Notes: generated by a model not told the origin, from the sequence alone. A DNA stretch of 64,000 nt from Escherichia coli (GCF_016903815.1 NZ_CP069973.1); one strand, 5' to 3'. Positions 6,903 through 9,471 are shown, counted from the first letter of the stretch. A program made the numbers and translations.

Positions 6903-7236
6903 TGGTTTATTCCCGCTGGTGCGGGGAACTCATCAGTGATATCCAACATTGCGGAGCTAAACGCGGTTTATCCCCGCTGGCGCGGGGAACTCTAATATCC
7001 CTGGCGATAATCAACCGGCTTACTCGGTTTATCCCCGCTGGCGCGGGGAACTCGAGAGCGAGGGGAGATTCCGGCAGGGCGTGCACGGTTTATCCCCGCT
7101 GGCGCGGGGAACTCGCGGGTATGCTCCGCTCCGTGTTCGACAAACTCGGTTTATCCCCGCTGGCGCGGGGAACTCAAGGTCGCGGGGACGCCACGGGCAG
7201 TCAATGTCGGTTTATCCCCGCTGGCGCGGGGAACTC
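6903..7236 (-). CRISPR. Type I-E CRISPR array, 6 repeats and 5 spacers, transcribed on the minus strand
   Basis: 29-bp repeats at 6903-6931 (3 mismatches, leader-distal), 6964-6992, 7025-7053, 7086-7114, 7147-7175, 7208-7236; five 32-bp spacers at 6932-6963, 6993-7024, 7054-7085, 7115-7146, 7176-7207. Confidence 0.95.
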
Positions 7237-7574: not shown

Positions 7575-8246
7575 TCAGGCAATATTTAAATATTTATGTG
7601 TTTGCATCGACAAACGCCAATTACGCGCAATGCAGGTTTCAATGCACAAACGTGTGGCATCATCCTTTTGGCTAATCGGCTGCAGTGCAATGACTCGCGG
7701 TTTATCATCGGTCAGCGTCGCAAGCAATTCATCCAGTGCTTCGATATCACGTACGCGTCCAACTGGGTGTTTGATTTCGTTAGCTCGCTCCAGGGCTTGC
7801 GACAATACTTCATAACCACCACGCATATTTAGCTTTGGCGACACGGTGACCCAGGTATTCGGCGTACAACGCACTTCATGAGTACCGCTGGTTTCTATCT
7901 GGCAGCTAAAACCGTTCTTTTCGAGCAGGTCAGTCAGTGGCAGCAAATCATGAATGCAAGGCTCACCACCCGTAATCACCACATGCCGCGCGGTGTATCC
8001 CTGGCGACCAATGACAGCCAGCAAGTCTTCACTGCTCGCCGCCCCCCACTTATCACTCTCTTTGGTCTTCGCCAGAATGCTGAAAAGGGAGACTTCCCGA
8101 TCCTCAAGCTTTTCCCAGGTGTGTTTGGTGTCGCACCAGGCACAGCCAACCGGGCATCCCTGTAAACGAATAAAAATGGCGGGGACGCCGGTAAAGTAAC
8201 CCTCACCTTGCAGGGTCTGGAACATCTCGTTAATCGGGTACTGCAT
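7575..8246 (-). CDS. queE: 7-carboxy-7-deazaguanine synthase (radical SAM)
   Basis: 223-aa ORF with CxxxCxxC-type motif (GCPVGCAWCDT); synteny. Confidence 0.9.
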   Translation of the reverse strand: MQYPINEMFQTLQGEGYFTGVPAIFIRLQGCPVGCAWCDTKHTWEKLEDREVSLFSILAKTKESDKWGAASSEDLLAVIGRQGYTARHVVITGGEPCIHDLLPLTDLLEKNGFSCQIETSGTHEVRCTPNTWVTVSPKLNMRGGYEVLSQALERANEIKHPVGRVRDIEALDELLATLTDDKPRVIALQPISQKDDATRLCIETCIARNWRLSMQTHKYLNIA

Positions 8247-8539
8247 AGCATTCTCTGTGAAGTGGATAATTGTTAATTATTGCAGATCCTGCCACAACAA
8301 TCATGTCTTATTAACATTCTGTTACAGGCAGGTTTAAAGAAAAATGAGAAACAGATCGTTAATAATAAAAGGGAGTAACGTATTATGTCAGAAATAAATA
8401 AAGTAAAGGGATTTAATCATGTCAAAAACATTCACCAAAATTATACTTATTTTTTCTGTGTTCGTTTTTAATTATAACGAATCTCAAATTACCGATGCCG
8501 CCGTCAATTTATTTATCCAGCTTTAATGGGACATTTATA

Positions 8540-9412
8540 ATGCGCTATTTCATACTAATATTCACATTCGTGTGTTCCTTTATTGCAGCCCAACCAACTA
8601 TTGTCCCATCATTACAGCAACAAGTTACGGATCTTACGAGTAGCTTAAACTCACAAGAAAAGAAAGAACTGACGTACAAGTTAGAATCTATTTTCAATAA
8701 TACCCAAGTGCAAATTGCTGTATTAATTGTTCCCACAACCAAAGACGAGACAATTGAAAAATATGCTACACGGGTTTTTGACAATTGGCGTTTAGGAGAT
8801 GCCAAACGTAATGATGGGATACTGATCATTGTTGCCTGGTCGGATCGTACTGTCCGCATCCAGGTAGGTTATGGGCTGGAAGAAAAGGTAACCGATGCTC
8901 TGGCTGGAGATATCATCCGTAGCAACATGATACCCGCATTTAAACAACAAAAATTAGCTCAGGGATTAGAGCTAGCTATAAACGCTTTGAATAACCAACT
9001 CACTTCACAACACCAATATCCGGCTAATCCTTCAGAAATTGAATCAGCGTCTTCCAGTGATCATTATTACTTTGCTATTTTTTGGGTATTTGCAGTGATG
9101 TTCTTCCCTTTCTGGTTTTTTCATCAAGGCAGTAATTTTTGTCGCGCATGTAAAAGCAGTGTCTGTATTTCAGCAATCTATCTTTTAGATTTATTCCTGT
9201 TCTCCGATAAAACTTTTTCCATTGCTGTATTTTTCTTCTTTTTTACTTTCACCACCATTATGGTCTTTACCTGTTTATGTGTACTTCAGAAAAGAGCATC
9301 TGGTAGAAGTTATCATTCAGACAACAGCGGTTCCGCTGGAGGCTCAGATAGCGGCGGCTTCAGCGATGGTGGCGGTTCTTCTGGCGGTGGCGGCGCATCC
9401 GGTCGCTGGTAA
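8540..9412 (+). CDS. ygcG: TPM-domain membrane protein with Gly/Ser-rich C-terminal tail
   Basis: ORF 8495..9412; start chosen at [14 protein letters not shown] (signal-like) giving 290 aa; C-terminus has hydrophobic segments and a [24 protein letters not shown] tail. Confidence 0.75.
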
Positions 9413-9421
9413 CTCCACCAT

Positions 9422-9447
9422 AAAAAATGCCAGCCCGAAGGCTGGCA
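9422..9447 (-). terminator. Intrinsic terminator of eno (hairpin also usable for ygcG)
   Basis: Stem tgccagcc / ggctggca with cgaa loop; A6 on plus gives a U-run on the minus strand. Confidence 0.6.
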
Positions 9448-9471
9448 TTATCAAATCAGATAAAGTCAGAC

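Follow-up and report, generated by a model that had tools for sequence, protein, structure and literature searches.

The 35-codon ORF at positions 8419 to 8526 of the window (the whole 64,000-nt stretch of Escherichia coli DNA analysed here, accession number NZ_CP069973.1) was almost certainly the A5 allele of yqcG, a known E. coli small-protein gene, and yqcG itself was very probably a remnant of lemA, namely the signal-peptide end of a gene most of which has been deleted; taken jointly, these two statements were considered likely. The 35-aa product was already known, having been deposited in GenBank and UniRef. The interpretation in the earlier note (a small ORF with a signal-like N-terminus, being a small membrane protein, a leader peptide, or chance) was thereby supported in part: the ORF was a small signal-peptide-like one, yet it belonged to a known gene, yqcG, of which it was a common allele, and the note had overlooked the yqcG identity, the frameshift relative to K-12, the lemA origin, and an overlapping ORF (8385–8471) with a stronger Shine–Dalgarno (SD) sequence. 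The features of this locus were as follows.

7575..8246, minus strand: queE, divergent; the ORF lies within the queE upstream regulatory DNA
8369..8375, plus strand: SD AAGGGAG for ATG 8385 (predicted duplex −7.9 kcal/mol, stronger than −5.1 for 8419)
8385..8471, plus strand: 28-codon ORF that overlaps the 35-codon one and begins at the start codon of K-12 yqcG; out of frame and with an early stop in the window allele
8406..8411, plus strand: SD AAGGGA for ATG 8419, very probably from lemA, 7 nt before the ATG
8419..8526, plus strand: 35-codon ORF, almost certainly the A5 allele of yqcG (Met-Ser plus K-12 YqcG residues 14–46)
8419..8514, plus strand: segment homologous to lemA codons 1–32 (signal peptide plus linker), in register and in frame
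8424..8428, plus strand: A5 run, A4 in K-12-type alleles; this 1-nt difference sets the start codon of the YqcG body
8440..8469, plus strand: hydrophobic core (ORF residues 8–17), matching the LemA signal-peptide h-region plus lipobox
8450..8455, plus strand: T6 run, a second homopolymer with indels in some sequences (T5, T7, and T8 variants)
8512..8526, plus strand: ORF tail FIQL plus stop, a possible lemA 3′ terminus (suggestive only)
8527..8539, plus strand: 13-nt spacer from the ORF stop to the ygcG start, spaced as lemA to its downstream TPM gene
8540..9412, plus strand: ygcG, the downstream cistron, encoding a TPM-domain protein (Pfam PF04536, E 9e-37)

Identification of the ORF as an allele of yqcG

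Re-reading of the window sequence returned the ORF (start ATG 8419–8421, stop TAA 8524–8526), its AAGGGA ribosome-binding site, and its translation exactly as described earlier, and the AT-rich position just before ygcG was likewise confirmed: the queE–ygcG spacer (8247–8539) had 30% G+C, the region 27–33%, and the ORF stop lay 13 nt from the ygcG ATG at 8540. In K-12 AG100, 55989, and O26, this position is occupied by annotated yqcG, which has the same strand as ygcG and separates it from queE. K-12 YqcG (UniProt YQCG_ECOLI, RefSeq WP_001288228.1, 'cell envelope stress response protein YqcG') was a 46-aa protein, and its start lay 34 nt upstream of 8419, at the position equivalent to 8385. 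Because of the extra A in the window, the K-12 frame stopped at 8471, only 28 codons long, and ATG 8419 was then in frame with YqcG residues 14–46, while the equivalent ATG was out of frame in K-12; the K-12 N-terminus (MSEENKENGFNH...) was not continuous with the body in the window, where this body was reachable only from ATG 8419. The ORF and K-12 YqcG shared 83% identity over 35 aligned residues.

The profile search gave E. coli and Shigella YqcG variants as its only matches: 35-aa variants of the ORF with one to a few residues different scored E ~1e-15 to 1e-18, and the exact 35-aa sequence belonged to one profile-matched cluster, P0051. This exact product was deposited (P0241, ANO90581.1, and others; at least 1000 contigs) under the names 'membrane stress resistance protein' and 'small protein involved in the cell envelope stress response', and neither it nor K-12 YqcG had any match among the Pfam and NCBIfam models. 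The 90%-identity cluster of the 35-aa protein also contained a 533-aa 'S1-C subfamily serine protease' (P0247, JGI/IMG), whose membership was probably a clustering or gene-call artefact.

The length of the ORF alone was unremarkable: an ATG ORF of at least 35 codons was present in 19.7% of dinucleotide-shuffled spacers (given strand), and one additionally preceded by an SD-like motif in 2.3%. Such frequencies would suit a chance ORF in AT-rich DNA, or a new gene unrelated to known ones, but this explanation was refuted by the clear homology to yqcG and to the lemA 5′ end and by the exact product already being in the databases, and its probability was regarded as practically nil; it was because of homology, not length, that chance, one of the options raised earlier, was dismissed.

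With the spacer as megablast query, 5,408 of 5,426 complete E. coli genomes gave a match, and the alleles were distributed as follows: A5 in 1,162, A4 in 2,722, and lemA in ~1,450 genomes, the A5 and A4 counts coming from short queries in which all 28-mer seeds covered the A-run. The ORF was intact in all five sampled A5 genomes, and three divergent A5 sequence classes were recognized. In strain 7/2, which has the identical allele, 8385–8526 was annotated by PGAP as 'hypothetical protein, frameshifted', and alleles resembling it received this label in other genomes too. Frame-disrupting indels in close relatives had been held in the earlier note to count against the ORF; this check had an ambiguous outcome, in that a 1-nt indel was indeed present but switched the start codon and left the ORF body intact.

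Broken or doubly shifted frames did occur, namely in strain OkiPb01695, in ~9% of metagenome contigs, and in a Shigella sonnei variant. This last variant (P0256, at least 1000 contigs) was a 36-aa YqcG in which the N-terminus of the K-12 protein was followed by a different C-terminus (...NDNESEVA), which implies that the 3′ half of the ORF is disrupted throughout this lineage. The T5, T7, and T8 variants of the T-run came from OkiPb01695 and metagenome contigs, and among the 452 finished genomes of the window haplogroup all 452 had T6 and none had T5 or T7, a result that the low-complexity filter of BLAST could affect for the T7 query. T-run indels as a frequent natural breakage were rejected, with T7/T8 found in low-coverage metagenome contigs and in none of these finished genomes; the T-run variants of metagenome contigs were probably mostly assembly errors.

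Probable derivation of yqcG from lemA

In approximately 1,450 complete E. coli genomes (~27%), the match was confined to the initial 207 nt of the spacer (83–84% identity), and these genomes carried a gene for a 'LemA family protein' at this place. The arrangement in Yu5 was queE<>lemA–TPM–TPM–TPM–eno; the lemA arrangement was also present in SCPM-O-B-8794, the GTDB representative of E. coli, and lemA was likewise located between queE and eno in E. albertii (with three TPM genes), E. marmotae, and Klebsiella (with one TPM gene). The lemA ATG aligned exactly with window 8419, with identical frame and SD, and from this aligned ATG plus SD a 196- to 202-aa LemA gene extended in Yu5, SCPM-O-B-8794, E. 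albertii, E. marmotae, and Klebsiella. The SD for the aligned ATG was AAAAGGGA or AAAAAGGA in all lemA orthologues, and the predicted anti-SD duplex for ATG 8419 (−5.1 kcal/mol) had the same value as that for the intact lemA of Yu5.

The ungapped in-register comparison with five lemA orthologues gave 20–28/36 matches for ORF nt 1–36 and 28–32/60 matches for nt 37–96 (z 3.6–4.5; 0–2/5000 shuffles), and the identity dropped to background beyond nt 96. The Pfam LemA domain corresponded to LemA residues 32–193 (E 4.6e-48) and was wholly absent from the ORF, which retained only the pre-domain leader, i.e., the lipoprotein signal peptide (MLRIFIVIIFIFNLSGC in LemA) plus a short linker. In the natural chimera P0082, the LemA start MLRIFIVIIFIF was joined in frame to the YqcG body, and the lemA and yqcG frames were thus equivalent.

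The signal-like N-terminus described earlier was therefore literally right, the ORF being homologous to the LemA lipoprotein signal peptide. K3 and K7 preceded the hydrophobic residues 8–17, and the longest uncharged hydrophobic run, between K7 and N18, was 10 residues long; a membrane-spanning hydrophobic segment (~18–20 residues) was absent from the ORF. At 8440–8469, the lipobox cysteine was lost: LemA reads IIFIFNLSGCG there, no lipobox [LVI][ASTVI][GAS]C was found after the ORF h-region (SVFVF where LemA has NLSGC), and the ORF contained zero cysteines. Of the three options offered at first, the small membrane protein came nearest, being a known yqcG allele, but the 10-residue core was too short for a canonical transmembrane helix.

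The 3′ terminus was compared as well. The last 15 nt of the ORF matched the Klebsiella lemA end at 11/15 positions with stops aligned (shuffle p 1.8e-4; among the top 3 of 577 offsets) and the Escherichia lemA at 9/15 with a 12-nt offset, and the spacer from lemA to its downstream TPM gene was 13–14 nt, like that from the ORF to ygcG; the tail match and the equal spacer suggest an in-frame collapse of lemA. For the 3′ deletion junction, window 8473–8542 was scanned without gaps along four lemA genes, and several offsets scored equally well; local alignments to the TPM–TPM junctions gave nothing past 'TAATGCGC', and the 15-nt match to Klebsiella lemA anchored on the stop was the only distinctive one. 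YgcG displayed 51–56% identity to the products of eno-proximal TPM genes and 43–45% to those of lemA-adjacent ones, and because its nearest relative was thus eno-proximal, the deletion may equally have been a simple one within lemA or a larger one that took several genes.

No full-length LemA with a YqcG-like N-terminus was found by the profile search, which gave E. coli/Shigella YqcG fragments only, and no short-type ygcG behind an intact lemA was found by the contig scan with YgcG, which gave one E. coli locus plus a 413-nt contaminant contig. This contig (Corallococcus aberystwythensis NZ_RAWK01000597.1, coverage 0.67) carried a fragment 94% identical to E. coli YgcG and almost certainly represented E. 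coli contamination of the assembly. In a literature search of incomplete coverage, no paper tying yqcG or ygcG to lemA was found.

The ancestral state would accordingly have been queE<>lemA–TPM (one to three genes)–eno, from which the short haplotype of the window would have arisen by deletion of everything from lemA codon 33 on and, depending on the ancestor, of the intervening TPM genes too. The putative survivors in the window would be the lemA SD, the start codon, the signal peptide (minus the lipobox cysteine), roughly twelve codons of the linker, the stop, and the 13-nt spacer.

Ancestral state of the A5 and A4 alleles

The A5 allele of the window, which keeps the lemA start, was judged with good confidence to be ancestral, and the K-12 start to be derived. 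The A5 length was present in all five lemA orthologues, and the 1-nt gap was unique to K-12-type alleles; the SD read GGGA in lemA and in 5/5 sampled A5 genomes and TGGA in 4/4 A4 genomes (AATGGA in K-12-type alleles), with predicted strengths of the lemA-type SD of −5.1 kcal/mol in the window and −3.1 kcal/mol in K-12. Among 64 classifiable metagenome contigs, from a sample limited to sequences with an invariant 23-mer inside the ORF, A5 was found on several sequence backgrounds and A4 on a K-12-like background only. The linkage of A5 with GGGA was rejected as evidence of selection, the two sites being ~16 nt apart and their linkage therefore uninformative; it may reflect shared ancestry rather than selection.

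The SD AAGGGAG at 8369–8375 was confined to the short haplotype: lemA-bearing genomes read AAATGAAG there, and the upstream ATG in these genomes, where present, began a 2-codon ORF only. The parsimonious order of events is thus lemA, then the window state, then the K-12 state: (i) lemA would have been reduced to a truncated lemA on its old start codon (the window state); (ii) the SD would have weakened and one A been lost in K-12-type alleles; and (iii) a new SD plus ATG 34 nt upstream, in the old lemA 5′ UTR, would have taken over to give the 46-aa YqcG. The label 'frameshifted' is reference-biased, because, judged against lemA in four other taxa, it is K-12 that carries the shifted allele.

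Sequence evolution of the peptide

Across the 33 common codons, the eight finished-genome alleles had 13 segregating sites, of which 11 were nonsynonymous and 2 were synonymous. Inclusion of 55 metagenome sequences (12 haplotypes in total, this sample being limited to sequences with an invariant 23-mer inside the ORF) gave 15 nonsynonymous and 2 synonymous changes; the neutral expectation was 80% nonsynonymous, and the deficit test gave p = 0.89. The ORF pN against K-12 (0.076) was equal to the ygcG pS (0.076), while the ygcG pN/pS was 0.32; the ORF pN/pS was at or above 1, and the ORF region was ~5–7% divergent between alleles, i.e., as fast as neutral sites. The peptide evolves neutrally, with no sign of amino-acid selection, and a sequence-specific function of it is doubtful because of this neutral evolution, the frame-broken variants, and the 10-residue core.

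These data bear directly on the view that the ORF encodes a functional envelope-stress protein, i.e., a short YqcG isoform that would be inserted in the inner membrane and act in a sequence-dependent manner. K-12 YqcG is reportedly detectable as a tagged protein and induced by envelope stress (SDS/EDTA; Hemm et al. 2008 and 2010), in line with its PGAP and EcoCyc name; the 35-aa form keeps the body including the hydrophobic core and the C-terminus, and yqcG was flagged in CRISPRi and TraDIS screens. The 2008 publication of yqcG was confirmed by Goodall 2018. Against this view, the pN/pS was at or above 1, the family was restricted to E. coli and Shigella, the uncharged hydrophobic run from K7 to N18 was just 10 residues, and ~27% of E. 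coli had lemA in place of yqcG; moreover, the TraDIS/CRISPRi signals at yqcG do not separate the peptide from cis effects, and the phenotypes published for yqcG deletion and knock-down can be accounted for just as well by effects on queE regulation or by polarity on ygcG. A functional envelope-stress protein was consequently considered quite improbable.

Two observations were made on the neighbouring genes. The ygcG of 55989 (locus L012, 593–912) was an annotated pseudogene with an internal stop, with yqcG upstream intact, and this hints that the whole short operon may be under relaxed selection in some lineages. The queE genes of the window (7575–8246) and K-12 (locus L002, 829–1500) encoded identical proteins (WP_001199973.1) with 34 synonymous differences; their pS of 0.22 (pN 0) was far over the ygcG pS, which suggests an old or imported queE allele under very strong purifying selection.

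Regulatory DNA and RNA structure

The ORF is located in DNA upstream of queE with documented regulatory roles. PhoP-P binds in vitro to the 300 bp upstream of queE, which contain the whole ORF, and to the next 300 bp, and a yqcG deletion in a ΔmgrB strain strongly raises queE transcription (Yadavalli 2016, PMC4974570); genomic SELEX revealed divergent RpoD promoters plus an H-NS site in the queE<>yqcG spacer (Shimada 2014, PMC3946193). The selected function of the region might accordingly be cis-regulatory, residing in PhoP/H-NS-controlled queE upstream DNA plus the yqcG–ygcG promoter region, with the ORF incidental, and the low G+C content of the region is in keeping with this. Weak PhoP-box-like matches were located at 8320–8336 (plus strand) and 8430–8414 (minus strand), each 10/12 to the consensus (T/G)GTTTA-N5-(T/G)GTTTA and lacking statistical support, the latter overlapping the ORF start codon and the A-run. 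Strong binding-site conservation was not evident, however, the ORF region diverging at the pace of neutral sites, and a cis-regulatory role would in any case be compatible with ORF translation; this explanation was rated as rather unlikely.

A regulatory leader peptide or attenuator, the second option raised earlier, had no support: no terminator/antiterminator, sequestering structure, RNA family, or regulatory codon pattern was found for it. No terminator-like site was present on the plus strand of 8385–8540, the local RNA folds around the ORF were weak, and the Rfam search gave a sub-threshold chance match only (18.5 bits vs the gathering score of 70.7). The promoter-like matches in the region numbered 4, vs 3.8 expected from shuffles.

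Possible translation of the ORF and coupling to ygcG

On the sequence signals, initiation of translation at 8419 was given about an even chance. The ORF would be co-transcribed with ygcG from a sigma-70 promoter in the spacer, and modest translation from 8419 would yield a 35-aa peptide resembling a signal peptide. The start at 8385 would compete with it, and with its stronger SD could take most ribosomes, these then crossing 8419 and stopping at 8471. The search for start-site data on yqcG and for expression data from any A5 strain was negative, with the gene unmentioned in the main text of the Ribo-RET and small-protein papers searched.

The RefSeq/PGAP view is that of an inert frameshifted pseudogene: ribosomes loading at the strong 8385 site would give an out-of-frame product of 28 aa, and the 8419 ORF, open only by being young and short, would be unused and without consequence. 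PGAP gave 'frameshifted' in every sampled A5 genome annotated at the locus, the 8385 SD was stronger than the 8419 SD, the sequence evolved neutrally, and the absence of a stop codon is unsurprising with only 17 substitutions; in addition, the broken or re-shifted variants (OkiPb01695, the metagenome contigs, and those of S. sonnei) and the ygcG pseudogene of 55989 agree with this view. However, the allele was 'frameshifted' relative to K-12 only and unshifted relative to lemA of four other taxa; ATG 8419 had the exact SD plus spacing serving the intact lemA; and the allele was present in 21% of complete genomes, with the ORF intact in the three divergent A5 classes. The inert pseudogene was therefore left as a real contender, somewhat short of even probability.

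If ATG 8419 is used, any effect would be positional, in that ribosomes would be delivered 13 nt before the weak ygcG start with no sequence-specific activity of the peptide; the consequence is expected to be positional because the peptide sequence evolves neutrally. The ygcG SD was predicted to be weak (−3.9 kcal/mol, vs −7.4 kcal/mol for TPM1), and no inhibitory mRNA structure was found around the ygcG start (local fold −6.8 kcal/mol). From these sequence features, coupling of ORF translation to ygcG appears possible but unlikely. A more elaborate proposal, held to be improbable, is that yqcG is a 'mini-lemA', i.e., an in-frame collapse that kept the translation signals, the signal peptide, the stop, and the coupling spacer and that would persist by feeding ribosomes to ygcG, not via its peptide. 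Were this true, (i) yqcG would be kept in ~70% of E. coli for ribosome supply to ygcG; (ii) the A5 and A4 alleles would mark the two sides of a shift in initiation, away from the lemA start and to a de novo start plus SD in the old 5′ UTR; and (iii) the 'stress protein' YqcG detected in K-12 would be largely a by-product.

Ribosomes in the 8385 frame read GTC AAA AAC at 8424–8428. A +1 tRNA-Lys slip on the A5 run would re-pair perfectly, continue as KTFTK..., and restore a K-12-like 46-aa product; this is purely speculative, and efficient slippage is unlikely because of only five A's and a common A-site codon.

Variation of the queE–eno interval

The queE–eno interval (window 8247–9470; also loci L005, L006, L014, L016, and L017) was a polymorphic hotspot. 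At least three architectures were found in E. coli: (i) yqcG–ygcG; (ii) lemA plus three TPM genes; and (iii) lemA plus TPM1, TPM3, and a TPM3::ygcG hybrid. The haplotypes reconverged only at ~8453 and ~9338, and all TPM paralogues shared a Gly/Ser-rich tail (...GGGGxSGRW). In E. marmotae (L016, 6617–7509), an apparently intact TPM gene (MRIFIFLLAFF...GGGGASGRW*) lay between lemA and the called TPM gene and was missing from the gene calls of the contig. On the two sides of the interval in the window were found (i) a CRISPR array (6903–7236) with six type I-E-style repeats (CGGTTTATCCCCGCTGGCGCGGGGAACTC) at 61-nt spacing, the first repeat degenerate, which was the E. coli CRISPR-2 locus beside queE and was annotated as CRISPR in matching genomes; and (ii) a strong GC-rich hairpin (9426–9449; 10-bp stem AATGCCAGCC-TTCG-GGCTGGCATT, flanked by T-runs) between the convergent ygcG and eno, which is probably a bidirectional intrinsic terminator.

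Implications

As a gene finding the ORF adds little, the locus being the known yqcG; the added value lies in yqcG as a lemA stub, the window allele with the ancestral start, and the neutral drift of the peptide. The RefSeq 'frameshifted pseudogene' label on 21% of complete E. coli genomes is reference-biased, and studies of YqcG in K-12 would concern a derived isoform, because K-12 carries the shifted allele relative to lemA, with part of K-12 YqcG recruited from a former 5′ UTR. yqcG very probably is a well-documented example of an 'orphan' small protein that is the stub of a deleted gene's signal peptide and whose sequence drifts neutrally, and it offers a caution for small-protein catalogues: a peptide that is detectably expressed and induced by stress need not have a function under selection. 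The published yqcG deletion and knock-down phenotypes may operate via queE regulation or ygcG expression.

Comparison with known systems

The comparison was applied to K-12 YqcG, the LemA lipoproteins, and coupled upstream cistrons. The ORF and K-12 YqcG shared the same locus, stop codon, and 13-nt spacer to ygcG, and window residues 3–35 aligned with YqcG 14–46, hydrophobic core and tail included; but they displayed different start codons (8419 vs the equivalent of 8385) due to the A5/A4 indel, the 13-residue N-terminus MSEENKENGFNHV was absent from the window ORF, the SD was GGGA in the window and TGGA in K-12, and there were six amino-acid differences in the common body.

The ORF and the LemA lipoproteins (PF04011) had in common the SD, the start codon, the frame, the first 32 codons, and the place after the queE divergent region, and both were located 13–14 nt before a TPM-domain gene, whereas the ORF lacked the LemA domain and its product cannot be a lipoprotein because the lipobox LSGC was replaced by VFVF. 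Compared to coupled upstream cistrons acting by termination–reinitiation, the ORF had its stop 13 nt before the weak-SD ygcG, in the same geometry as lemA–TPM, while the TPM gene behind the intact lemA had its own strong SD (−7.4 kcal/mol).
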